From Clostridia bacterium (GTDB lineage Bacteria > Bacillota > Clostridia > Oscillospirales > Acutalibacteraceae): a stretch of 64,000 nt of DNA. The stretch is taken from the NCBI GenBank assembly GCA_017433225.1, contig JAFRHS010000044.1:28317-92316 (forward strand), read 5' to 3'. The translations under genes were made by a program, and so were the position numbers. A model generated the notes under the pieces. That model searched no databases and was not told where the DNA came from. It worked only from the letters and a program-made list of their open reading frames with translations. This document shows, piece by piece, positions 1 through 51,820 of the stretch. How positions within the stretch are numbered: the first letter of the stretch is position 1; each line of letters opens with the position of its first letter.

Positions 1-260
1 GGTTTAGGACTTTTCTTTTCCCTACCAGTTAATAAGAAGTCTGCAGAAACATTAAAGACCTCAGCCAATAATGACAGCGTATCAATCCCAGGGAGCATAT
101 CGTCATTACGATACTTTGAAAGAGTGCCCGCTCCAATGCCAATACGCCGCGCTATTTCCGCCTGGGAAATGCCTTTTTCTTTTTGCTTATTCAATTCATT
201 TTTCAACCGCTGGTTAAACTGCCCGCGGTCGAAATTGTAGGTTTCGCCTTTATGGCTCAT
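1..260 (-). CDS. XRE-family (cI-like) HTH repressor, first 86 codons; C-terminus lies left of the window
   Basis: Own reverse-strand translation from ATG 260-258: MSHKGETYNFDRGQFNQRLKNELNKQKEKGISQAEIARRIGIGAGTLSKYRNDDMLPGIDTLSLLAEVFNVSADFLLTGREKKSPK. HTH_3 pattern is present. Absent from the ORF track because there is no stop in the window. Divergent from a small HTH gene. Confidence 0.75.
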   Translation of the reverse strand, partial: MSHKGETYNFDRGQFNQRLKNELNKQKEKGISQAEIARRIGIGAGTLSKYRNDDMLPGIDTLSLLAEVFNVSADFLLTGREKKSPK

Positions 261-452
261 AGTCGTATCACCGTCCTTAAGGTGTTTCTCAAGGTAATAC
301 TACAGCAACAGCAACTATAAGTCAATCAAAGCATATATGCGTGTTTTGGAAATGTTTATTTTCTAAAATTTCTATTCCGTCAATATCGAATGGGCGATAC
401 AATGCGAGTGTAAGCAATAACAACAAAAAGCGAATAGAAAGAAGGTGAAACG

Positions 453-623
453 ATGCCAGGAGCAGAAGTAAAGCGGATGATCCTTGACGCAGGCCTGTAC
501 CTTTACCAGGTGGCAGATGAATTGGGGGTTACTGACAGCTGGTTCTCCAAAATGCTGCGCCACGACTTCACAGCCGAGGACACGGAGCGGGTCAAGGCTG
601 CCATTGAGAAACTGACCAAGTAA
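453..623 (+). CDS. Small cro-like HTH protein (56 aa)
   Basis: Own translation: MPGAEVKRMILDAGLYLYQVADELGVTDSWFSKMLRHDFTAEDTERVKAAIEKLTK. GAAGGTGA Shine-Dalgarno 5 nt upstream. Below the 60-aa cut-off of the ORF track. Divergent from the XRE repressor. Confidence 0.6.
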   Translation: MPGAEVKRMILDAGLYLYQVADELGVTDSWFSKMLRHDFTAEDTERVKAAIEKLTK

Positions 624-666
624 ACCAAAAAGCCCACAGCGGACCGCTGAGAGCATTTTAGAGGGG

Positions 667-1137
667 GTGCTTTTATTGTACTTGTATCACGCCACAAACT
701 CCGAAAGCGTCCCGGAAATTCTCGAAAAAGGGTTAATACCTAAAGGGCCTTTTAGCGCAGTGTGCTTTTCAACCAGTATTGCCGGGGCGTTAGGCGGAGC
801 AGAGTTTACGCGGATGTATAAACAAGCAGTTCGCCTTAACAAGATTTATTGTGATCCCTGCAGGGCCGCCGGGAGGAGGCCGCCGGAAATCTATCTATAT
901 GTTACGGTTTTTGCTGTTCCTTTTAGTGACATCGCGGAAAGGAAACACAAAAAAGTAGGCACGTATTGGGATGAGTGGCGCAGTTATGAGCCCGTCCCCG
1001 TGGCAGATTGTAAAAGGATGGATTATTACTATATCTCTGATCAAGACGGAGTATTCGAGCGGTGGTATAACCCAAAAGATGAAACAAACTGGGCAACAGA
1101 TATCACGCTTGAGCCCTCAGACTGGACTTCTGAGTAG
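667..1137 (+). CDS. Hypothetical island protein (156 aa); N-terminus weakly reminiscent of ADP-ribosyltransferase-fold proteins
   Basis: ORF track. LYHATNSESVPEILEKGLIP followed by CFSTS. The true start may be TTG at 676, 9 nt after GAGGGGG. No family securely recognised. Confidence 0.5.
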   Translation: MLLLYLYHATNSESVPEILEKGLIPKGPFSAVCFSTSIAGALGGAEFTRMYKQAVRLNKIYCDPCRAAGRRPPEIYLYVTVFAVPFSDIAERKHKKVGTYWDEWRSYEPVPVADCKRMDYYYISDQDGVFERWYNPKDETNWATDITLEPSDWTSE

Positions 1138-1354
1138 TGCGTCCATACGGAGCGGGACAAAGAGCGCCCGCGGGTAGGCATTCAGCTGGAACTTCATTTT
1201 CTGTTATGGTGTTCTGCCATTTCTCCATAGCAGGGTTACATTCATACAGTTGTTGCCTAAAAGGGAGTTTCATTGTCTCGGTCACAGTCAGCCTTTCTAT
1301 TGCCCGTCGTGCAATTAATAATCATTCCCGCGGGCGTTCTTTAGCCCGCTCCGT

Positions 1355-1454
1355 GAAAAAGAAAAGACCCTGGGAAAGCCCAGGGCGTAGTCATTAACAA
1401 TAGGTCGGACCCGCGGGAAGTGGTCCCCTATCGCCGTGCTTATCATAGCACAGA
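1355..1454 (-). ncRNA. Candidate ~100-nt countertranscript antisense to the leader of the xis-primase operon
   Basis: Minus-strand promoter TTGAAA (1489-1484), 16-17 nt spacer, CATAAT/ATAATA (1467-1461). Three hairpins follow at 1436-1451, 1400-1431 and 1368-1385, the last followed by a U-run (complement of 1355-1367). Confidence 0.3.
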
Positions 1455-1464
1455 AAGAGGTATT

Positions 1465-1671
1465 ATGCAAAAAGACAGAACCGTTTCAAACTGGGATAAA
1501 TTGCCAGTGGTTTTAGATGTCCACACCGTAGCACTTATCTTTGACGTTTCAGATCAGACCGTTAAGACCTGGTTACAAACCGGGAAACTGAAAGCCACAA
1601 AGGTTGCCCGCAAATGGGTCATTGACCGCGACTATATCCGTGGAATCGTTCAAGGGGGTGCGACTTTATGA
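1465..1671 (+). CDS. Excisionase-type (HTH_17/MerR-like) DNA-binding protein
   Basis: ATG 1465 lies 4 nt after AGAAAGAGG. LPVVLDVHTVALIFDVSDQTVKTWLQTGKLKATKVARKWVIDRDYI matches the excisionase-family HTH pattern. Its stop overlaps the next ATG (ATGA). Confidence 0.7.
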   Translation: MQKDRTVSNWDKLPVVLDVHTVALIFDVSDQTVKTWLQTGKLKATKVARKWVIDRDYIRGIVQGGATL

Positions 1672-2171
1672 GCGGCACAGGTATTGTAAGAGCCTACTTG
1701 GCGATGAACCCGGAAACCAGGAAAAGCGACTACGAATTGGCGCGGCGCGTCTATCACACTGTGGGTTACCGTTACGGTGTCACTAAGGCAGAAGTAGATG
1801 CTGCCATCGACACCCTGGAAAAGCTACACCCCACATTTAGGTCCATCATCCGGCTGCGGTCTGTTATCACCAGGAGCCACCCGGAATGGACAGACCCGGA
1901 AACGGAGAGAAAACGGAAAAAGAACGAACCAAAATACAGGGCCCGATACAGTAATGGCAAAGAGCCCGCGCCCCCTTATGAGATCCCGGCGGAGATCATA
2001 GCGCAAAACCGTGAGATCGAACTAACCAGGGTAATTATGATCCTTCTCACCCTGCAGATGCCCGGCTCCGCAATTAAGGCCGCAGTGGATGCTGTCAACA
2101 ATGAGCGATGCAGGCCCCCGTTGGATACAGACACTTTGACCCTTTTGTTTGATGGGAGCGGGATAGAATGA
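1668..2171 (+). CDS. Stand-alone PriCT-1-like domain protein (167 aa)
   Basis: C-terminal YEIPAEIIAQNREIELTRVIMILLTLQMPGSAIKAAVDAVNNERCRPPLDTDTLTLLF aligns with YEFPAEIVEGQRNSELYKAACSLLGRGLSETAARAALNAENLEKCSPPLDDAEIEQLF inside the 757-aa primase. Translationally coupled on both sides. Confidence 0.6.
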   Translation: MSGTGIVRAYLAMNPETRKSDYELARRVYHTVGYRYGVTKAEVDAAIDTLEKLHPTFRSIIRLRSVITRSHPEWTDPETERKRKKNEPKYRARYSNGKEPAPPYEIPAEIIAQNREIELTRVIMILLTLQMPGSAIKAAVDAVNNERCRPPLDTDTLTLLFDGSGIE

Positions 2172-2368
2172 GCACTAGCAGATGGGGCGAACACTGGGAA
2201 GATGAAGAAAACGAGGAAGGACTATCCCGGGGCCTTTTGGAAAGACGTTTCTTTGACGATGAAATACTGCCCGCATTCGCTGAGGAATACGACATAAACC
2301 TATATGACATAGAGGACCCGTCCGACTACTACGAGGATGCTATGGACTGGTACGACGATAATTATTAA
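2168..2368 (+). CDS. Hyper-acidic 66-aa protein (possible DNA mimic)
   Basis: By my count 23 of 66 residues are D/E, with only 4 R and no K. Aromatic-rich. ATGA overlap with the upstream gene. Confidence 0.55.
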   Translation: MSTSRWGEHWEDEENEEGLSRGLLERRFFDDEILPAFAEEYDINLYDIEDPSDYYEDAMDWYDDNY

Positions 2369-2421
2369 AGCAAAGGCGGCGGCTCAGGGCCGCTGCCTAT
2401 TTTTGAAAGAGGGTTGATGCA

Positions 2422-4695
2422 TTGAGCGATAACAAGATGAGGGACGCGGCCCTGGAATACGCCCAGGCAGGCTATGCGGTATTTCCCATTAAGGCAAAGG
2501 GTAAAACTCCGCTCATTAAGGAATGGCAAAAGAGAGCCACCACAGACAAAAACAAAATATCCAGCTGGTGGGACAAATGGCCCCAGGCCAACATCGCTAT
2601 AGCCTGTGGGCAGATGTCCCGCGGGCTGATCGTCATTGACGTAGATAAGAAATCCGGCGGCTTAGAAACAGTGGCGGACTGGGAGCGGGAAAACGGGACA
2701 CTAACCAGCTGCCAGCGGAGCATAACAGGCAGTGGCGGATTTCATTATTTTTACACTAGCAGGATATCAGATCAATACACCAATAAGGCGGGAGTATATC
2801 AAGGCGTAGACCTTAGAACAGATGGGGGTTATATCATTGCTCCCCCGTCATTACACCCCGGCGGCGGAGTGTATCAATGGGAAATGGATGCTATTACCGA
2901 TAACAGCCCCATAGAACTGAGCGGAACAGCGGAACAGTTCATAGAACCAGCATTAAAGGACTTTGACGATGGTATGCCCGCTCCGCATTATGAATTTCCG
3001 GCGGAGATCGTAGAGGGACAGCGAAACAGTGAACTGTATAAAGCCGCCTGCTCACTATTGGGGCGCGGTCTGAGTGAGACGGCGGCCCGGGCGGCACTTA
3101 ACGCGGAAAACTTGGAAAAGTGTTCCCCACCTTTAGACGATGCAGAAATAGAACAGCTTTTCAACAGTGCTGTTGCATTCATTAACTCTGATCGGTCCCG
3201 CTCCGCCGGGGCGGATCTTTCACGCGCAGCACTGGCAAGTGGCCTTGAACCCAGCGCCGACAAGTCCCCGCTAGATTATTCAGATATCGAACTGGTGTAC
3301 GTTCTTAATGAAATGAAAGTCAGCACGGACCGAAGGTATAACAGCCTGTCGGACATTGCCGCCGGGGCCCTGTTCAATTCCATATACGGTAAGTATCTGC
3401 GTTATAACACTACGGCCCGCGGGTGGTATTGGTACAACGGGATCAACTGGCAGCGGGACCGCACGGAGCGGGCGGAGAAGGCCGCGGAGACGCTTTCTAA
3501 TGCCTTGTACCATTATGCCGTGGGCCAGGGAGACGCTTATCAGAAACTAGCAGGCAGGCTGCAGGATATCAACAAAAGAGACAAAATGCTGAGGGATGCA
3601 CAAAAGCACAACCCCATTACCAGCGAAATGCTAGACCAAAAGCCGGACCTGTTCAACTGTAAGTGTGGAACATACAACCTCAAAACTCGCAAATGGAAAG
3701 ACCACGACCCGGCGGACCTTCTCAGCAAGTGCGCTAATGTCACGGAGCGGGACTGCCAGTATACAGACTTTGAAAAGGTCGTTACGCAAATACTCCCGGA
3801 CAAGGAAATAAGAGACTATTTCCAAATGGTCATTGGCCTGTGCCTATCTGAGGACACCACCCCGGCAGAGTTTTATATCATCTTGGGTGAAACCACCAGG
3901 AACGGAAAGTCAACTCTGTTAAATGCTATAGGGGCAATGATGGGAGACTACCATTTAACCATAGCGCCGGAAACGCTGGAAAAGGCAAACCGAGTAAATA
4001 GCAGCGGACCCAGCCCGGACAGATCGCGCTTTCAAGGTGCGCGGATGATCCACGCGGAAGAACCCCGGCGCGGTATGCCGTTAGACAGTGCATTTATCAA
4101 GGCTATAACAGGTGGCGATACAATGACCGCAAGGCAGCTACACCAAGAGCCCGTCTCTTTCCGGGTGGTTGGCAAGCTGGTCATTGTTACAAACCACCTG
4201 CCAGCCGTTTCCGATACAACCGTCTTTAGTTCGGAGCGGGTGGCAGTGATCCCGTTTGAGCAGCGTTTCATTGGCACGAAAAGAGACTACCACCTGCAGG
4301 AGCGAATGCGGAAACAGGAAATGCTTAACCAGTGTTTTTCCTGGGCGTGTGAAGGAAATCAAAAATACAGAAACGCAAAAGACTTCAAAACAAACAGACC
4401 AGCTGCCATAACTAAGCGAGTGGATCAATACCAGGCGGACAGCGACTATATAGGCCAGTTTATCAAGGACTGCATAAAGAAAGACCCGGAAGGCTGTATA
4501 AGATCCCAGGAATGTTACCACGCGTACAAGTATTGGTGTGAAGAAAACAACTGTAAACCGTTCGGCCCTAGAGCGTTCAATTCAGAATTGCGAGGGCCAC
4601 AAAGAGGACATTTGTTAAAGGACAGCGCAACAGTAGACGGTAAAACAGTAAGAAATGTTATCCCAGGTTATAGTCTGAAAGACAGTACGGGTTAA
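2422..4695 (+). CDS. Bifunctional primase-polymerase / PriCT / P4-D5-type helicase (phage-plasmid primase, P4 family)
   Basis: 757 aa. Prim-Pol motifs (GYAVFPI, LIVIDVDKK, GGFHYFY), a PriCT-1 segment and Walker A GETTRNGKST. TTG start 8 nt after AGAGGG; alternative ATG at 2437. Confidence 0.85.
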   Translation: MSDNKMRDAALEYAQAGYAVFPIKAKGKTPLIKEWQKRATTDKNKISSWWDKWPQANIAIACGQMSRGLIVIDVDKKSGGLETVADWERENGTLTSCQRSITGSGGFHYFYTSRISDQYTNKAGVYQGVDLRTDGGYIIAPPSLHPGGGVYQWEMDAITDNSPIELSGTAEQFIEPALKDFDDGMPAPHYEFPAEIVEGQRNSELYKAACSLLGRGLSETAARAALNAENLEKCSPPLDDAEIEQLFNSAVAFINSDRSRSAGADLSRAALASGLEPSADKSPLDYSDIELVYVLNEMKVSTDRRYNSLSDIAAGALFNSIYGKYLRYNTTARGWYWYNGINWQRDRTERAEKAAETLSNALYHYAVGQGDAYQKLAGRLQDINKRDKMLRDAQKHNPITSEMLDQKPDLFNCKCGTYNLKTRKWKDHDPADLLSKCANVTERDCQYTDFEKVVTQILPDKEIRDYFQMVIGLCLSEDTTPAEFYIILGETTRNGKSTLLNAIGAMMGDYHLTIAPETLEKANRVNSSGPSPDRSRFQGARMIHAEEPRRGMPLDSAFIKAITGGDTMTARQLHQEPVSFRVVGKLVIVTNHLPAVSDTTVFSSERVAVIPFEQRFIGTKRDYHLQERMRKQEMLNQCFSWACEGNQKYRNAKDFKTNRPAAITKRVDQYQADSDYIGQFIKDCIKKDPEGCIRSQECYHAYKYWCEENNCKPFGPRAFNSELRGPQRGHLLKDSATVDGKTVRNVIPGYSLKDSTG

Positions 4696-5598
4696 GAGAC
4701 ACTGAAAAAGCCGATTTTTCGCCTTTTCCAAAAACCACGTAGTTACGCCATTTGTGCAGTTTGTGCAGTTTAGTATCGTTTTTTCCCGGGAAAACAAAAT
4801 TAAAAAAAATATAGAATAAAACTGCACAAACTGCACATTTCAGCCTAATGAATATTATTCATTCGCTTATTTGCCGTAAAACAACGGTAAATTGTGTATG
4901 AATATGCAAAACAGCGCTTGTTTATGCATATATCCACCCTCTTTTATGCATAACTGCAGCTGGAGCGGGTGGAGAATTATACAAAATACGTCTTTTATCC
5001 TAAATGGTTTTAGGCGGCTCAGCTGCTAGCCGCCTGGGGCTGCTTATAGTACAGTGGATCAATCGCCCTGGGGTTCACAATATGATATTATTGCCATAGA
5101 CCCGTTAGGGTCGTATCAGCCTTTCTGTTTCCCGGTCCTGTATCGCCACAGGGCCGGGATCTCTTTTTAAGTTCGAACATATCGAACCTTTCTTTTTTTA
5201 GGGGCGCACCTTCCGCGAGATACTCCCCTTTTTTTGGGGCTGTATTATCTGACGATGCACCCCTTTTTTAGGGGCTCAGAAATGACGGAAAGCTCTTTTT
5301 AAGGTGGCAGGTATAGAAGGATGGCATTTCACGTAATGCCTGCCTACGGCCTTATTTGAGGCAATAATACACTTGCCCACTGCCCAGGCGGAATATAGGC
5401 AATACTTCAAAATGGGATCAAGTGGTATAACTTTGGTATAACTTTGTATACCAGTTTTTCCAGCACCGACGTAGTTACGCCGTTACCTGGGCTTGATTTT
5501 GGTATACATTTTGGTATACACCATAGCGAAAAATAGGGGCAAAGTACGATAAGTTGTACATTTTATTTTCTGATTTGGAAAAATAATATTTATGAAAA
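4696..5598. repeat. Non-coding iteron/inverted-repeat field, probable replication origin of the island
   Basis: Tandem TTTGTGCAG x2 (4751-4771) with an inverted copy at 4819-4837 around an AT-rich core. TTTATGCATA x2 (4921-4951). Five YCYTTTTT(T)AGGGGC-like units about 30-38 bp apart (5161-5300). Four GGTATA(A/C) units (5424-5522). Three ACGTAGTTACGC copies. Confidence 0.5.
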
Positions 5599-5638
5599 AA
5601 CGCTCAAAAACCACGTAGTTACGCGATTTTTGAGCGTT
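5593..5638 (-). terminator. Intrinsic terminator of tRNA-Pro
   Basis: 12-bp stem AACGCTCAAAAA/TTTTTGAGCGTT (5599-5610 / 5627-5638) with a 16-nt loop, followed on the minus strand by a U-run. Confidence 0.65.
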
Positions 5639-5644
5639 TCCTCT

Positions 5645-5720
5645 TGGTCCGAGTGGCGAGACTTGAACTCACGGCCTCTTGACCCCCAGTCAAGCGCGCT
5701 ACCAACTGCGCCACACCCGG
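5645..5720 (-). tRNA. tRNA-Pro (anticodon GGG), CCA encoded
   Basis: Hand-folded reverse complement: CCGGGTG TG GCGC AGTTGGTA GCGC G CTTGA CTGGGGG TCAAG AGGCC GTGAG TTCAAGT CTCGC CACTCGG A CCA. 76 nt. Confidence 0.9.
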
Positions 5721-5741
5721 ATATGCAATTCGTGCTCAACT

Positions 5742-5770
5742 ATAATAACAGAAAGGGGACCCAGAATCAA
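5742..5770 (-). promoter_or_regulatory. Sigma-A-type promoter of tRNA-Pro
   Basis: Minus strand TTGATT, 17 nt spacer, TATTAT, about 20 nt upstream of the tRNA 5' end. Confidence 0.55.
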
Positions 5771-10164: not shown

Positions 10165-10289
10165 GACGGGACTTGAACCTTTAGGCCGGAGCGTTAAGAA
10201 AACAGCACGGTGGGCTGTTTTTAGCGACGGGAGGTGCGGCAGCACCTCGGTGCGGCTTGCGAAGCAAGACGCATCAAGTCCCGTCTCTC
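10165..10289 (+). repeat. tRNA-Leu-linked cassette A: conserved ~89-nt module flanked by an inverted and a direct copy of the tRNA T-arm/acceptor 3' segment
   Basis: GACGGGACTTGAACC (10165-10179) is the exact reverse complement of tRNA GGTTCAAGTCCCGTC. CAAGTCCCGTCTCTC (10275-10289) repeats the tRNA 3' part. The module is about nine-tenths identical to 21475-21563 by hand alignment. Confidence 0.6.
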
Positions 10290-21342: not shown

Positions 21343-21429
21343 GCGGACGTGGCGGAATTGGCAGACGCGCTAGATTCAGGTTCTAGTGAATGCAAGTTCA
21401 TGTGGGTTCAAGTCCCGTCGTCCGCACCA
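21343..21429 (+). tRNA. tRNA-Leu (anticodon CAG), CCA encoded
   Basis: GCGGACG TG GCGGAATTGGCAGACGC G CTAGA TTCAGGT TCTAG, long variable arm, GGGTTCAAGTCCCGT CGTCCGC A CCA. Confidence 0.9.
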
Positions 21430-21430
21430 G

Positions 21431-21471
21431 GAAACAGCGAACACGCTTATGCGTATTCGCTGTTTCTTTTT
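21431..21471 (+). terminator. Intrinsic terminator after tRNA-Leu(CAG)
   Basis: GAAACAGCGAACACGC TTAT GCGTATTCGCTGTTTC followed by TTTTT. Confidence 0.8.
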
Positions 21472-21474
21472 GCG

Positions 21475-21735
21475 GACAGGGACTTGAACCGAAGGCCGGA
21501 GCGTCAGGAAAACAGTCCGGTGGACTGTTTTTAGCGACGGGAGGTGCGGCAGCACTTCGGTGCAATTTCGCAAAGCGAAATTGCAGTACGGTCAGAAACA
21601 TAGTCGTCTCGCTCGCTTGGAGCGCGTCGCGATACTCCTTGTTTCTTCCTGTTCGACGACACTGCTTCATCTGCCGCAGGCAGCGCAGTGCCGCGAACCA
21701 AGTCCCGTCGTCCGCACGGCGGCAGTCCCGTCGTC
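21475..21735 (+). repeat. tRNA-Leu-linked cassette B: same conserved module, longer, with two further direct copies of the tRNA 3' segment
   Basis: GACAGGGACTTGAACC (21475-21490) is an inverted T-arm copy. The module runs to 21563. CAAGTCCCGTCGTCCGCAC (21699-21717) and AGTCCCGTCGTC (21724-21735) repeat this tRNA's own 3' end. Confidence 0.6.
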
Positions 21736-23459: not shown

Positions 23460-26400
23460 ATGAAAAATGAAACTTTGCAAAACAATCTGCTCTACAGTGA
23501 GCAGTTCGAACACGATGCCTGCGGGATCGGGACCGTGGTCTCCATCAAAGGGGAGGCGTCCCGGCGGATCGTCGACAGCGCATTGAAGATCGTCGAGAAA
23601 CTGGAACACCGGGCCGGAAAAGATGCGGCCGGGGAGACCGGAGACGGTGTCGGCATCATCGTCGCCACCCCGCACGAGTTCTTCAAAGCCAAAGCGGCGG
23701 AGTGCGGCATCGAACTGGGCGATGCACGGGAATACGGCATCGGCATGCTGTTCCTGCCGCAGGACAAACTGCGCCGGGCACAGGCCAAGAAGATGCTCGA
23801 GATCATCACCGCCAAAGAAGGTCTCCGATTCCTCGGCTGGCGGGTCGTCCCGACCTGTCCCGAGACGCTCGGGCAGAAAGCGATCGACAAGATGCCGTAC
23901 ATCGAGCAGTGTTTCATCGAAAAGCCGGCCGACTGCGCGAAGGGCATCGACTTTGACCGCAAACTCTACGTCATCCGCCGGGTCTTCGAACAGTCCAACG
24001 ACAACACGTATGTCTGCTCGCTGTCCTCCCGGACCATCGTTTACAAAGGCATGTTTCTCGTCCAGCAGCTGAGAAGCTTCTATCGGGACCTCCAGGAAGA
24101 GGACTTCGTCTCGTCCATCGCGATGGTCCACTCCCGATTCTCCACCAACACGAACCCCAGCTGGGAACGGGCGCACCCGAACCGGTTCATCGTCCACAAC
24201 GGCGAGATCAACACCATCCGCGGCAACGCGGACCGGATGCTCGCCAGAGGCGAGACCATGGAATCGCCGTTCCTGAATGAGAACTACGAAAAGATCCTGC
24301 CGGTCGTCGATACCGCCGGGTCCGATTCCGCCATGCTCGACAACACGCTCGAGTTCCTCGTCATGAACGGCATGGACCTGCCGCTCGCGATGATGATCTG
24401 TGTCCCGGAACCCTGGAAGTCCGATGACACCATGAGCCGCGAGAAAAAGGACATGTACCACTACTATTCCACGATGATGGAACCCTGGGACGGCCCTGCG
24501 GCCCTGCTGTTCACCGACGGCGACCAGGTCGGCGCCTGTCTCGACCGGAACGGTCTGCGGCCCTCCCGCTACTATGTGACCGATGACGACCTGCTCATCC
24601 TGTCCTCGGAAGTCGGTGTCCTGCCGCTGGACGACCGGCACATCGTCAAAAAGTCCCGTTTGCAGCCCGGAAAGATGCTGCTCATCGATACGAGAGAGGT
24701 ACGCATCATCTCCGATGACGAGTGCAAAGAGCGGTACGCACATCGCCACCCTTACGGAGAATGGCTCGACCTGTACCTCAAAACGCTGCACGAACTGCCG
24801 ATCCCCAATAAGAAAGTGGAGGAGTCCACGCAGGAAGTCCGGGACCGTCTCTACAAGGTCTTCGGCTACACCTATGAGGACATCAATACGTCCATTCTGC
24901 CGATGGCGAAAAACGGCTCGGAGCCGATCGCTGCCATGGGCATCGACATCCCGCTGGCCGTCCTCTCCGAAAAGCACCAGCTGCTGTTCAGCTATTTCAA
25001 ACAGCTGTTCGCGCAGGTGACGAACCCGCCGATCGACGCCATCCGGGAAAAGGTCATCACCGATACCCAGGTCTACGTCGGTTCGGACGGCAACCTTCTG
25101 GAGGACAAAGGAGACAACTGCCAGGTCCTCGAGATCAGCCATCCGATCCTGACCAGTGTCGACCTTTTGAAGATCAAAAACATGGATCTGCCCGGCCTGA
25201 AAGTGGCGACGGTCAGCATCCTGTATTACAAGAACACGTCCCTCGAAAAGGCGGTCGACCATCTCTATGTGGAGTGCGACAAAGCCTACAAGAAGGGCGC
25301 GAACATCATCATCCTGTCGGACCGCGGCGTCGACGAGAACCACGTGGCGATCCCGTCGCTGCTGGCCGTCTCGGCGATGGAGCAGTACCTCATCCGGACC
25401 AAGAAGAGGACGGCGATCTCCATCATCCTGGAGAGTGCCGAACCCCGCTGCGTCCACGACTTTGCGACGCTTCTCGGCTACGGCGCCCGGGCGGTCAACC
25501 CGTACCTCGCGCACGAGTGCATCGAAGAGTGCATCGAGAAGGGCCTTCTCGACAAGGACCCCCATACGGCGATCGACGACTACAACGAGGCGGTGCTGAA
25601 CGGCATCGTCAAGATCGCCTCCAAAATGGGGATCTCGACCATCCAGTCTTACCAGTCCGCACAGATCTTCGAGATCGTCGGGATCCGGGAAGACGTCGTC
25701 GAGAAATACTTCACCAATACCGTGAGCCGTGTCGGCGGCATCGGCCTTCCGGAGATCGCGGAAGGGGTCGAATACCGGCATGACCACGCCTTTGACCCGC
25801 TGGGCCTCGGCACCGACACCACCGTCGACAGTATGGGTTACCACAAGCTGCGCAACGGCGCCGGGAAAGAGGATCATCTCTATGACCCGCGGACCATCAT
25901 CCACCTGCGCAGAGCGGTCCAGGACGGCGATTATGAGCGGTTCAAAGAGTATTCCGCCATGGTCGACGATGAGAACGTCCCGCATACCTTGCGCGGACTC
26001 CTGGCATTCGAATACCCGGAACAGGGCATCCCGCTCGAAGAAGTGGAACCCGCTTCCGAGATCGTCAAACGCTTCAAGACCGGTGCCATGTCCTACGGAT
26101 CTCTCTCCCGAGAGGCCCACGAATGCATGGCAGTGGCGATGAACCGTCTCGGCGCAAAGTCCAATACCGGTGAGGGCGGCGAACTGCGCGACCGGTTCGG
26201 GACCGAGCGCAACAGCGCGATCAAACAGGTCGCGTCCGGCCGCTTCGGCGTCACGAGCGAATACCTCGTCTCGGCCAAAGAGATCCAGATCAAACTGGCG
26301 CAGGGCGCGAAACCCGGCGAGGGCGGTCACCTCCCGGGCAAAAAAGTGTATCCCTGGGTCGCGGCGACCCGGTTCTCCACACCCGGCGTTTCGCTGATCT

Positions 26401-27995
26401 CTCCGCCGCCGCACCACGACATCTATTCCATCGAGGACCTGGCGCAGCTCATCTATGACCTGAAAAACGCCAACCGCGATGCGCGCATCAACGTCAAACT
26501 CGTCTCCGAGGCGGGGGTCGGCACCATCGCCTCCGGCGTCGCCAAGGGCGGGGCAGAGGTCATCCTCATCTCCGGCTATGACGGCGGTTCGGGCGCGGCT
26601 CCTCTGAGCTCGCTCCACAACGCCGGTCTGCCGCTGGAACTCGGCCTCGCCGAGACGCACCAGACGCTCATCGAGAACGGCCTGCGTACGCGGGTCCGGG
26701 TCGAGGCCGACGGCAAACTGATGACCGGCCGCGACGTGGCGATCGCCTGCATGCTGGGCGCCGAAGAGTTCGGCTTTGCCACGACGCCGCTGATCGCCAT
26801 GGGATGCGTCATGATGCGTGTCTGCAATCAGAACACCTGTCCGGTCGGCATCGCGACCCAGGACCCGCGCCTGCGGGCTCGCTTTGCCGGAAAACCGGAA
26901 TACGTCATCAACTTCATGATGTACATCGCCGAAGAACTGCGTGAGATCATGGCAAAACTCGGTGTCCGCACCGTCGAGGAACTCGTCGGGCGCACAGACT
27001 TCCTGAAAGTGAAAGAGAAGGCGATCACACACCGCGCCGCCATGGTAGACCTTTCGAAGATCCTCGGGAACCACAATGCGGACGGCTGCAACGCAGTCCA
27101 CCATATCGACGGCGACGAGTTCGATTTCTGTCTGGAAGAGACTCTGGACATGAAAGAACTGGTCCCCGCGTTCCGCAAAGCGCAGAAGGCGGGGAAACCG
27201 ATGGATCTCGCGCTCGAGGTCACGAGCACGGACCGTTCGTTCGGCACGATCCTCGGTTCGGAAGTGACCAGAGCGTACGGCATCGATGCACCGGAAGACC
27301 TGTGCCGTGTCCGCTGCAAAGGCGGCGGCGGTCAGTCGTTCGGAGCGTTCCTGCCAAAGGGCGTCTCCATCCGGCTCGAAGGGGACTGTAACGACTATTT
27401 CGGCAAAGGACTCAGCGGAGGGAATCTGGCCGTATATCCGCCGGAAGATGCCGCATTCCGGGCGGAAGAGAACATCATTATCGGCAACGTCGCTCTGTAC
27501 GGCGCCACCGCCGGCAAGGCATTTGTCCGCGGCATTGCGGGCGAGCGGTTCTGTGTCCGGAATTCCGGCGCGGAAGCCGTCGTCGAAGGCGTCGGAGACC
27601 ACGGCTGTGAATACATGACCGGAGGTACGGTCGTCGTTCTGGGACGCACCGGAAAGAACTTTGCGGCCGGGATGAGCGGCGGGACCGCCTACGTCCTCGA
27701 CGAAGAGCATGATCTGTACCGCAGACTCAACAAGGAAATGGTCGAAGTGAGTACGGTCAGCAGCAAGGCGGACATTTCCAAACTGAAGGAGATGCTGGAG
27801 GAGCATGTCGCCGCCACCGGCTCTGAACTGGGGCAGAGGATCCTCGACTCGTTCGATGACTATGTCCCGTCCTTCAAGAAGATCATCCCGCACGAGTATG
27901 CGGTCATGAAAGACAAGATCTACGAAGAACTCAGCAAAGGCCTGTCGCAGGAGGATGCCGAACTCGAGGCATTCAACGCGCTGATGGGCGCATAA
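23460..27995 (+). CDS. gltB: Glutamate synthase large subunit
   Basis: 1511 aa. N-terminal EHDACGIG amidotransferase, FMN and Fe-S domains, GXGG repeats in the C-terminal domain. Confidence 0.95.
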   Translation: MKNETLQNNLLYSEQFEHDACGIGTVVSIKGEASRRIVDSALKIVEKLEHRAGKDAAGETGDGVGIIVATPHEFFKAKAAECGIELGDAREYGIGMLFLPQDKLRRAQAKKMLEIITAKEGLRFLGWRVVPTCPETLGQKAIDKMPYIEQCFIEKPADCAKGIDFDRKLYVIRRVFEQSNDNTYVCSLSSRTIVYKGMFLVQQLRSFYRDLQEEDFVSSIAMVHSRFSTNTNPSWERAHPNRFIVHNGEINTIRGNADRMLARGETMESPFLNENYEKILPVVDTAGSDSAMLDNTLEFLVMNGMDLPLAMMICVPEPWKSDDTMSREKKDMYHYYSTMMEPWDGPAALLFTDGDQVGACLDRNGLRPSRYYVTDDDLLILSSEVGVLPLDDRHIVKKSRLQPGKMLLIDTREVRIISDDECKERYAHRHPYGEWLDLYLKTLHELPIPNKKVEESTQEVRDRLYKVFGYTYEDINTSILPMAKNGSEPIAAMGIDIPLAVLSEKHQLLFSYFKQLFAQVTNPPIDAIREKVITDTQVYVGSDGNLLEDKGDNCQVLEISHPILTSVDLLKIKNMDLPGLKVATVSILYYKNTSLEKAVDHLYVECDKAYKKGANIIILSDRGVDENHVAIPSLLAVSAMEQYLIRTKKRTAISIILESAEPRCVHDFATLLGYGARAVNPYLAHECIEECIEKGLLDKDPHTAIDDYNEAVLNGIVKIASKMGISTIQSYQSAQIFEIVGIREDVVEKYFTNTVSRVGGIGLPEIAEGVEYRHDHAFDPLGLGTDTTVDSMGYHKLRNGAGKEDHLYDPRTIIHLRRAVQDGDYERFKEYSAMVDDENVPHTLRGLLAFEYPEQGIPLEEVEPASEIVKRFKTGAMSYGSLSREAHECMAVAMNRLGAKSNTGEGGELRDRFGTERNSAIKQVASGRFGVTSEYLVSAKEIQIKLAQGAKPGEGGHLPGKKVYPWVAATRFSTPGVSLISPPPHHDIYSIEDLAQLIYDLKNANRDARINVKLVSEAGVGTIASGVAKGGAEVILISGYDGGSGAAPLSSLHNAGLPLELGLAETHQTLIENGLRTRVRVEADGKLMTGRDVAIACMLGAEEFGFATTPLIAMGCVMMRVCNQNTCPVGIATQDPRLRARFAGKPEYVINFMMYIAEELREIMAKLGVRTVEELVGRTDFLKVKEKAITHRAAMVDLSKILGNHNADGCNAVHHIDGDEFDFCLEETLDMKELVPAFRKAQKAGKPMDLALEVTSTDRSFGTILGSEVTRAYGIDAPEDLCRVRCKGGGGQSFGAFLPKGVSIRLEGDCNDYFGKGLSGGNLAVYPPEDAAFRAEENIIIGNVALYGATAGKAFVRGIAGERFCVRNSGAEAVVEGVGDHGCEYMTGGTVVVLGRTGKNFAAGMSGGTAYVLDEEHDLYRRLNKEMVEVSTVSSKADISKLKEMLEEHVAATGSELGQRILDSFDDYVPSFKKIIPHEYAVMKDKIYEELSKGLSQEDAELEAFNALMGA

Positions 27996-50853: not shown

Positions 50854-51820
50854 GTGCGATCTTGTTCAGCGGGTTCGCGTCGGTCGCGGATTTCAGCTGT
50901 TCGTTGACCACGTGTGTGTAGATCTGTGTGGTGCCGACGTTCTCGTGTCCGAGGATCTCTTTGAGAAGCAGGACGTCGACGTCTCCGTACTGGTACATGA
51001 GCGTGGCCGCGGTGTGGCGGAGCTTGTGGACCGAGTAGCCCTCGAGTCCCGCTTTTTCCAGCGTCGTGTACACGATGTGCTGGACCGTCTTCGGCGAGAT
51101 GCGCTGTTTGCGGTTGCTGAGGAACAGCGCCTCTTTGTCCTTGACGCCGTCGACCGGCCGGACTTTCATGTACTCGTTGATGGCGGCGATACACGCGTCG
51201 TTGAAGTAGATGGTACGTTCTTTATTACCTTTTCCGGTGATCTTGACCGTGTTGTCGTCCCGGATGTCCGTGTAATTGAGGCTGACGAGCTCTGAGAGCC
51301 GCATCCCGCAATTCAGGAAGAGAGTGATGATCGCGTAGTCGCGCTCCTTATTGGGCCCCTCAGCGGCCTTTGAGAGCAGTTTCATGCTCTCGTCGAGTGT
51401 GAGGTACTTCGGCAGGGACTGCTTCATTTTGGGCGTCTCCAGCTCCTGCATGGGGTTTTCGTCGATGACGTGTTTCTGGACCGTACAGTATTTGAAAAAC
51501 GCGCGCAGGGTAGAGACCTTCCGGGCACGGGTCCGGGCGGAGTTCTCCCGCTCGTCCTTGCACCAGGAGAGGAACGCGTAAGCGTCTGCCAGCGTGATCC
51601 GCCGGATGTCCTTCTTGTCGATGTCCGAGATGTCGATCTCGTCAAAGGGAGTGTCCTCCGGTACATCGCCCCAGTACTTCTTCAGAAAGCGGAAGAAGAG
51701 GCGAAGGTCCGATGCGTACTCCGAAATGGTATTCTTGGACTTGTTGCGGATGGCATCCATATAGTTGAGGAATTCCACCATCAGAACGGGGAAGTCCCTG
51801 TAATCCTGCCGGGTGATCAT
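50834..51820 (-). CDS. Tyrosine recombinase, XerC/XerD-like
   Basis: R...HKLRHTAAT...LGHENVGTTQIYTHV catalytic signature. ATG 51820 is preferred because the upstream in-frame ATG (51871) lies inside a TATAAT box. Confidence 0.8.
   Translation of the reverse strand: MITRQDYRDFPVLMVEFLNYMDAIRNKSKNTISEYASDLRLFFRFLKKYWGDVPEDTPFDEIDISDIDKKDIRRITLADAYAFLSWCKDERENSARTRARKVSTLRAFFKYCTVQKHVIDENPMQELETPKMKQSLPKYLTLDESMKLLSKAAEGPNKERDYAIITLFLNCGMRLSELVSLNYTDIRDDNTVKITGKGNKERTIYFNDACIAAINEYMKVRPVDGVKDKEALFLSNRKQRISPKTVQHIVYTTLEKAGLEGYSVHKLRHTAATLMYQYGDVDVLLLKEILGHENVGTTQIYTHVVNEQLKSATDANPLNKIAQNNTED

Follow-up and report, generated by a model that had tools for sequence, protein, structure and literature searches.

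The element at the tRNA-Pro gene

In this study, we analysed a 64,000-nt stretch of DNA from a Clostridia bacterium, here called the window (positions 28317-92316 of contig C25 in the 2.12-Mb, 60-contig, 97%-complete assembly G000), at whose left end lies an integrated, satellite-like element of 7.85 kb. The element extends from contig 26111 (window -2205, negative numbers lying to the left of the window) to window 5695, and its right 5.7 kb fall inside the window. It sits between uvrA and a potA-like gene, at a tRNA-Pro(GGG) gene whose 3' end, at window 5645, faces it. Nine genes were found on it, none of them structural in Pfam and PHROG searches. A tyrosine integrase gene adjoins the left end, 0.7-1.9 kb left of the window, and is followed by orf52 and an XRE-type repressor gene, all three read leftward. 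A cro-like gene, ORF156, the excisionase gene xis, ORF167, ORF66 and a primase-helicase (replicase) gene are read rightward, and a non-coding field of 0.95 kb closes the element at the tRNA gene.

An earlier interpretation of the window, made without database searches (the sequence-only reading), had described an AT-rich island at window 1-5644 that stops at the tRNA-Pro(GGG) 3' end and carries no structural genes. The tRNA boundary was borne out by ARAGORN and Rfam, and the composition by a G+C content of 0.39-0.53 along window 1-5750 and of 0.55-0.63 further right. The extent was not correct: low G+C goes on for another 2.8 kb or so beyond the left edge of the window, and the element begins at window -2205. 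The G+C content of the whole element is 0.488, compared with 0.576 for the genome and 0.579 and 0.575 for the two 10-kb flanks. The gene order stood as described on the evidence of Pfam, PHROG and BLASTP, with two corrections: Xis was taken as a protein of 68 aa, not as the 83-aa open reading frame (ORF), from its calling in other copies, and the repressor has 276 aa, of which 86 codons lie in the window.

Both ends of the element are marked by an exact 51-nt direct repeat, and the two copies, attL and attR, are 7850 bp apart. The repeat covers the 3' part of tRNA-Pro(GGG) from the CCA end to the anticodon stem, which is the usual target of tRNA-integrating tyrosine recombinases, and insertion leaves or regenerates an intact tRNA-Pro(GGG). 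The sequence-only reading had expected the integrase and a second att copy within about 20 kb to the left, and both were found there within 2.2 kb. In all seven full-length copies of the element, the core spacing is 7850-7926 bp and the ends are the same.

A BLAST search with the 9-kb locus was run on 40 related genomes, of which 19 share its genus. The body of the island was present in 0 of the 40 genomes, and the matches were confined to the flanks, the tRNA gene and a small repeat; the alternative that had been raised earlier, a block of host-like composition shared by all relatives at this tRNA, agrees neither with this result nor with the low G+C content. An exact empty site was found in one genome of the same genus (G017), with the uvrA stop codon, a terminator, a repeat of about 180 nt and an intact tRNA-Pro gene in the same orientation as here, and the join lies exactly where attL and attR would fuse. 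In three other genomes of the genus (G016, G019 and G004), the site is also empty, and the block of tRNA plus repeat is inverted between uvrA and potA.

Copies of the element were found on metagenome contigs, for instance from SRR12529347, SRR31077500 and ERZ28018735; sample labels such as STEW18 and XIEF21 may point to the ruminant gut. The contigs with single cluster variants numbered up to 100 for the integrase, 66 for the primase and 123 for the repressor. In two copies (L016 and L017), the element was 98.06% identical over 7997 bp and uvrA about 90-91% identical; the tRNA end abuts uvrA, and attL abuts different DNA. In three others (L046, L049 and L050), the element was 94.5% and the flanks 89.8-91.7% identical, and the block of repeat, element and tRNA is inverted between uvrA and potA. 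Near-identical copies stand in at least three host contexts, and the element is more conserved than its flanks. These comparisons argue for recent horizontal movement of the element, although a part of the context pattern could come from later rearrangement of the locus. No larger version was seen among the nine aligned copies, in which the variation of the gene set comes down to the loss of ORF156 in one copy (L025) and a frameshift in ORF66 in another (L023).

The selection on the genes was estimated by comparing this copy with four others. The dN/dS values were 0.06-0.07 for the integrase, 0.03-0.07 for the primase-helicase, 0.09-0.18 for the repressor, 0.05-0.27 for the cro-like gene, 0.14-0.30 for ORF167 and 0.16-0.24 for ORF66. 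By these values, the core genes are under purifying selection. We concluded that the element is complete, site-specific and able to replicate itself.

The surroundings of the insertion site show some features of their own. Across species, the tRNA-Pro gene and its trailing repeat block have opposite orientations between uvrA and potA (loci L005, L006, L009 and L010, from G017, G016, G019 and G004, respectively), and island-bearing metagenome copies occur in both orientations, which suggests that this short intergenic block inverts recurrently. L016 carries a DDE_Tnp_1 transposase gene (3406-4815) some 170 bp outside attL, and past this gene its DNA is unlike the flank here. The repeat unit of about 180 nt lies between uvrA and attL (contig 25929-26110; L003 529-710; window -2387 to -2206; L003 is the coordinate frame of the extracted locus). 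At its start stands the tRNA tail in antisense (TGGTCCGAGTGGCGAGACTTGA), at its end a fragment of the T arm in sense. Units of this family are scattered in large number over the genome and the genus, often directly behind tRNA genes, and others lie at window ~10167-10289 and 21402-21580. A third, 23-nt copy of the att core (contig 25929-25951) was considered as a scar left by a second, tandem element. This was rejected because it is the start of the repeat of about 180 nt, which is already present in the G017 empty site; the repeat is thus older than the island and no att scar.

Genes, switch region and non-coding field

The coordinates of the features are collected in Table 1.

Table 1. Features of the element and its target gene, from left to right (L003 711-761 = contig 26111-26161).
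Feature	Position	Strand	Basis
attL core	contig 26111-26161; window -2205..-2155; L003 711-761		Exact 51-nt repeat
Tyrosine integrase, 388 aa	contig 26420-27586; window -1896..-730; L003 1020-2186	-	PF00589, E 1.3e-19; phrog_1, E 1.4e-55
orf52, 52 aa, between integrase and repressor	L003 2191-2349	-	Start overlaps repressor stop by 4 nt
XRE-type repressor, 276 aa	window 1..260 (first 86 codons) to contig 27746; L003 2346-3176	-	HTH_3, E 6.3e-13, residues 27-76
Divergent switch region between repressor and cro-like gene	window 261..452		Promoter-like sequence, inverted repeat
cro-like small helix-turn-helix (HTH) protein, 56 aa, first rightward gene	window 453..623	+	phrog_17740, E 4.1e-8
ORF156, 156 aa, orphan accessory gene	window 667..1137	+	ORF call
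28-nt inverted repeat (89% complementary) around 152 nt, between ORF156 and xis	window 1147-1174 / 1327-1354; L003 4063-4090 / 4243-4270		Repeat search
Excisionase-type HTH protein (Xis; AlpA-MerR class), 68 aa	window 1465..1671	+	PF12728 HTH_17, E 1.3e-7; phrog_66 and phrog_2907 excisionases
ORF167, 167 aa, detached PriCT-like C-terminal domain	window 1668..2171	+	BLASTP to primase residues 186-250, 42% identity, E 1e-13
ORF66, 66 aa, strongly acidic, translationally coupled to ORF167	window 2168..2368	+	ORF call
Replicase, 757 aa: archaeo-eukaryotic primase (AEP) primase-polymerase, PriCT_1, D5_N, SF3 helicase (DUF5906), Pox_D5 C-terminal domain	window 2422..4695	+	Pfam, PHROG
Origin-like part of non-coding field	window 4696..5000		Almost no variation in nine aligned copies
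Variable middle part: hairpins and T-tract/AGGGGC unit array	window 5001..5400		Alignment of nine copies
attP right arm, conserved	window 5401..5644		Repeats, alignment
attR core	window 5645-5695		Exact copy of contig 26111-26161
tRNA-Pro(GGG), integration target	window 5645-5720	-	ARAGORN; Rfam RF00005, 63.6 bits

The repressor also matched the repressors of phrog_8, phrog_4 and phrog_3. Neither Peptidase_S24 nor another known C-terminal domain was found in it with Pfam, and its C-terminal 190 aa have homologues only within this element family. An AF2-type model of the repressor was unusable (predicted local distance difference test score, pLDDT, 40.2, from an alignment of 5 sequences). A match to phrog_57, 'terminase small subunit' (E 0.0029), was rejected as a small terminase gene (terS) because it is the HTH of the repressor. 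In the switch region, a promoter-like TTGACT-17-TAGTAT lies on the minus strand (window 325-297), and a single 9-nt inverted repeat, TTTCTATTC/GAATAGAAA, lies at window 369-377 and 432-440. No LexA (Cheo) box was found at the locus, and on this sequence evidence SOS control of the switch is rejected.

The cro-like gene was found in all copies; it gave weak HTH_31 and HTH_23 matches (E 0.02) besides its PHROG match. Five of six other copies encode exactly the same Xis protein, although their DNA differs by 4-5 silent changes. The start of ORF167 overlaps the xis stop codon (ATGA). The C-terminus of ORF167 and the primase's PriCT_1 domain are paralogues; by itself, this C-terminus reached E 0.11 with the PriCT_1 profile. 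ORF66, which is frameshifted in L023, had no family match in Pfam, PHROG or PADLOC. The sequence-only reading of the 757-aa protein as a Prim-Pol, PriCT and P4/D5 helicase fusion was supported by its domain matches (Prim-Pol, E 9.9e-41; D5_N, E 3e-20; PriCT_1, E 8e-9; DUF5906, E 2e-8; Pox_D5, E 8.7e-7). Its best PHROG was phrog_1156 DNA primase (E 1.5e-116), and a 752-aa start variant is commoner in the other copies. The nearest relative of the replicase outside the element family is 34% identical and phage primases are 22-28% identical to it; primase scans of genome contigs and viral contigs returned remote relatives only.

ORF156 had no match in Pfam, PHROG or PADLOC, and one distant homologue (31% identity, E 2.7e-6) was found among 1.84 billion representative proteins. 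It is absent by deletion in L025, and its dN/dS is 0.6-0.8, from about a dozen changes. We read ORF156 as probable accessory cargo. When a profile of ORF156 and two homologues was compared with the PDB, the top matches were the NAD-binding lobe of the Tpt1/KptA RNA 2'-phosphotransferases, below the threshold (E 0.056-0.078); the motif LYHxT...I.EKGL is common to both. The distant homologue itself had one weak DUF7002 match. An AF2 model of ORF156 was unusable (pLDDT 37.9). The 28-nt inverted repeat behind this gene is rich in CCCGCGGG, and the L025 deletion of ORF156 ends at its left arm.

The non-coding field was split into three parts by alignment of nine copies. Three repeats exceed chance in it: ACGTAKTTACRC with 4 matches (0.00 expected), TGGTATAMC with 6 (0.06 expected) and TTTGTGCAG with 3 (0.07 expected). 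The origin-like part contains one ACGTAGTTACGC repeat and TTTATGCATA repeats, and a tandem TTTGTGCAG pair and its inverted pair form a perfect 19-nt inverted repeat on the two sides of a 47-nt AT-rich core (window 4753-4837). Iteron pairs around an AT-rich core are the pattern of origins of the type found in Staphylococcus aureus pathogenicity islands (SaPIs). We infer that this part is probably the replication origin for the adjacent helicase. The iteron origin of the sequence-only reading thus held for this part of the field, which also contains attP arm sites and a variable array. In the variable middle part, T-tract/AGGGGC units stand about 35 nt apart (window ~5184-5290); there are three here and five or six in L023, L046 and L049, and L024 has different, unrelated DNA in place of the array. 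A role of the array as a packaging or bending site is speculation. The right arm contains repeats of TGGTATAAC/GGTATAC and two of ACGTAGTTACGC, with 20 nt between the last of these and the core. Both motifs return immediately inside attL (L003 770-781 and 797-817), and in the excised circle they would therefore flank the core on both sides. These arm repeats are inferred to be arm-type sites of the integrase and Xis, as their arrangement suggests.

Comparison with known satellites

SatelliteFinder defines a core for phage-inducible chromosomal islands (PICIs) by five components, namely integrase, regulator, primase-replicase, capsid morphogenesis and small terminase, and its regulator component is a homologue of AlpA, MerR or Stl (de Sousa et al. 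2023, PMC10085698). The capsid-morphogenesis component is also absent from bona fide SaPIs (PMC10085698). By its sequence, the element would be classed as a 'Type C PICI', with three of the five core components and no forbidden phage components, the regulator being a putative one, judged from the HTH_17 and XRE/cro matches. The SaPI/PICI-type module order proposed by the sequence-only reading agrees with these three components. As in PICIs of the SaPI type, the integrase lies by attL, the repressor is read leftward, and the cro-like gene, xis, primase-replicase and origin follow rightward in this order. The repressor has no self-cleavage domain, the element is smaller than 10 kb, its G+C content is below that of the host, and it has no tail, holin or portal genes. 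In contrast to these PICIs, the element has no small terminase or capsid-morphogenesis gene, and no helper phage was found. Its kinship with PICIs and the Javan elements is limited to domain families, and its integrase is 24% identical to those of Javan streptococcal satellites.

[quoted passage not shown] PICMI115 has 6.1 kb and six genes and carries no terS or capsid-remodelling genes, and a virulent phage packages it in the form of concatemers (Barcia-Cruz et al. 2024, PMC10803314). The element and the PICMIs have in common a minimal set of integrase, AlpA/Xis-type regulator, primase and a few small unknown genes, a small gene coupled to int, and the lack of terS, sid, ppi and capsid genes; these counterparts are functional ones (PMC10803314). 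Because a PICMI works with such a gene set, the set is sufficient for a working satellite. PICMIs lie beside fis in marine Gammaproteobacteria (Vibrionaceae), whereas the element lies in tRNA-Pro(GGG) of a Clostridia host, whose UvrA clusters with proteins of 'Clostridia bacterium' metagenome-assembled genomes. PICMIs have no cI/cro-type pair and use AlpA as the key regulator, whereas the element has such a pair and its replicase is a fused PrimPol-SF3 helicase. The element is not a PICMI, because the integration site, the host and the regulator differ.

The StCI elements of Streptococcus thermophilus are induced by a protein of a virulent phage, and their uptake then proceeds by natural competence (Morency et al. 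2026, PMC13376191). Like the element, they live in Firmicutes, and its size falls into their range of 7-20 kb (PMC13376191). The element shares with the StCI and Javan satellites the att repeats, the set of int, regulatory and replication genes, the lack of structural genes and a G+C content below that of the host. StCI hosts are mostly without a complete prophage, and StCI elements are classed as PICI Type C or D (PMC13376191), which also applies here. The att repeats of StCI measure 16-18 bp and lie outside tRNA-Pro, their proteins are not close to those of the element, and their induction by a phage protein and their transfer by competence are experimental findings. The layout of integrase, repressor, small ORF, HTH_17, primase and D5 helicase was also found in 'Streptococcus satellite phage Javan644' (MK448594.1), which has 8.4 kb.

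The element has some similarity to P4. Both integrate into a tRNA gene by a tyrosine integrase, and both encode a single large primase-helicase with D5_N/SF3 and an origin-binding end and replicate in a plasmid-like manner. However, homologues of Psu, Delta, Sid and Ash/epsilon were not detected on the element with Pfam and PHROG, only the D5_N/SF3 part of alpha was matched, the primase of the element is of the AEP (Prim-Pol) type, and no cos site of a P2-like helper was found. From the sequence searches, the element is thus judged not to be P4-like, and of the P4 resemblance noted earlier only the D5-type helicase stands. The element is not a temperate prophage, as it is complete between exact att sites without structural genes. 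By the Pfam search of its ORFs, it is not an integrative and mobilisable or integrative and conjugative element either, as no relaxase, coupling protein or type IV secretion gene was found.

Proposed cycle and rival explanations

We believe, with a probability of roughly 55%, that the element is a minimalist PICI-like satellite that an infecting helper phage packages into its capsids. At rest, the XRE repressor, which would be co-transcribed leftward with orf52 and int, would silence a rightward operon consisting of cro, ORF156, xis, ORF167, ORF66 and the primase-helicase gene. Because the repressor has no protease domain and the locus no LexA box, induction is more likely to come about through binding of a protein to the orphan C-terminal domain than through RecA-mediated self-cleavage. 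Phage proteins bind the Stl repressor of SaPIs in this manner. Xis and Int would then excise the circle, and the PrimPol-SF3 helicase would melt the AT-rich core between the TTTGTGCAG iterons and copy the circle. As it carries no genes for virions, packaging, lysis or conjugation, the element would leave the cell with outside help. The exit would most likely be packaging in helper-phage capsids, and another possible way is free DNA set loose on phage lysis, as in StCI of S. thermophilus. A more detailed version of this cycle seems unlikely to us: a satellite of uncultured gut or rumen Clostridia would hijack a virulent phage without a packaging gene of its own, a phage protein would bind the repressor C-terminus, concatemers would be formed, the T-tract/AGGGGC array would mimic the packaging site of the helper, and the detached PriCT protein and ORF66 would interfere with helper replication or host defences.

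Several results weigh against a packaged satellite, and the helper dependence that the sequence-only reading called probable stays at that strength. On the element, searches with Pfam, PHROG and PADLOC gave no gene for terS, capsid morphogenesis, a portal, HNH or interference, and packaging genes were not recognised in the distant relatives L029 and L021 either. The non-coding field had no DNA match in 50,697 phage records, and the origin 30-mer was not in IMG/VR. In the host assembly, no HK97 capsid, TerL (three families) or portal gene and no resident prophage were found. The Type C group, with more than 6000 elements, was set apart as one that may comprise working satellites, defective ones or mobile elements of other kinds (PMC10085698). 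The excised form left no clear trace: a Logan contig of 7888 bp (L022), which runs from base 1 of the core to 29 nt into the core, was considered as the circular form and is ambiguous, as an assembly-graph break at the repeat explains it equally well, and the attP-junction pattern had no match in JGI metagenome contigs, a collection without the element itself, and hence uninformative.

Other searches for a phage link gave the following results. For terS, no true match was found in Pfam or PHROGs, with the unknown ORFs tried to E 10. No tail, holin, head-tail or lysis gene was found on the element with Pfam and PHROG, and neither a phage-like cos site nor a cos/pac match was found. A 17-mer of the T-tract array had one match inside an unrelated coding region, which was taken as chance. 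Only two tyrosine recombinases were found in the host assembly, the integrase of the island and one at contig 79222-79722 (window ~50906-51406). In plasmid records, the sole match was the tRNA itself, on a Pusillibacter replicon.

The main competitor, which we hold as a tentative and less probable explanation, is a self-replicating integrative episome and not a satellite. It would be a plasmid-like circle under its own repressor/cro switch, spreading unpackaged by vertical transmission, transformation, vesicles or in-trans mobilisation via a cryptic oriT. The att sites, int, xis, replicase, origin and mobility between contexts fit such an episome equally well; the searches of the element found nothing phage-derived in its genes or sequence, and the host lacks prophage hallmark genes as searched above. 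The unpackaged movement of StCI elements by natural competence (PMC13376191) and the doubt about Type C sets point in the same direction. Against this, the Pfam search found no relaxase, coupling protein, type IV secretion or partition gene among the ORFs, although a relaxase-less oriT may exist. The cI/cro-type switch, the Stl-like repressor without protease and the int/xis pair are typical of phage-derived elements, the best family matches of the replicase are phage primases (phrog_1156), and even StCI induction requires a virulent phage.

A further explanation, a decayed prophage or the remnant of a fuller PICI that has lost its packaging module and is now fixed and immobile, would account for the two absent PICI core components, the relaxed constraint on ORF156 and the ORF66 frameshift in one copy. 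It is very unlikely, however, as the att cores are exact, the unit of 7850-7926 bp recurs in all full copies, the element stands in its several host contexts more conserved than the flanks, int, xis, repressor and primase are intact under strong purifying selection, and the nine aligned copies include no larger version. We give still less credit to a defence or toxin island, in which the mobility genes would be a mere carrier for ORF156 as an ADP-ribosyltransferase (ART)/Tpt1-like enzyme and for ORF66 as a DNA mimic. Defence genes are frequent in satellites (PMC13376191; PMC10803314), and the Tpt1/KptA lobes are the top PDB matches of the ORF156 profile, but these matches are below significance, no cargo ORF had a PADLOC match (the defence matches on the element were generic HTH ones), and ORF156 is dispensable and weakly constrained. 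Such an island would also add to the mobility mechanism and not compete with it.

The element is a recently mobile member of a common, already described kind. As an example of the smallest satellite-like islands it is abundant and cleanly delimited, and it comes from uncultured Clostridia without any studied satellite. The exact ends, the empty site and the natural variants make it a convenient model for the minimum functions needed to exploit a phage. Three orphan parts, the sensor domain of the repressor, ORF156 and the acidic ORF66, could hold functions of induction or interference.

An element with the same gene order, about 8-9 kb long and lying between host genes, was also found on metagenome contigs labelled Hadza (L029, L030 and L031). 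It consists of int, a 222-aa repressor, a 62-aa ORF, HTH_17, an NrS1-1-like primase-polymerase and a D5 helicase, followed by six small unknown ORFs. The D5 helicase of this element is 39% identical to the helicase part of the replicase here.

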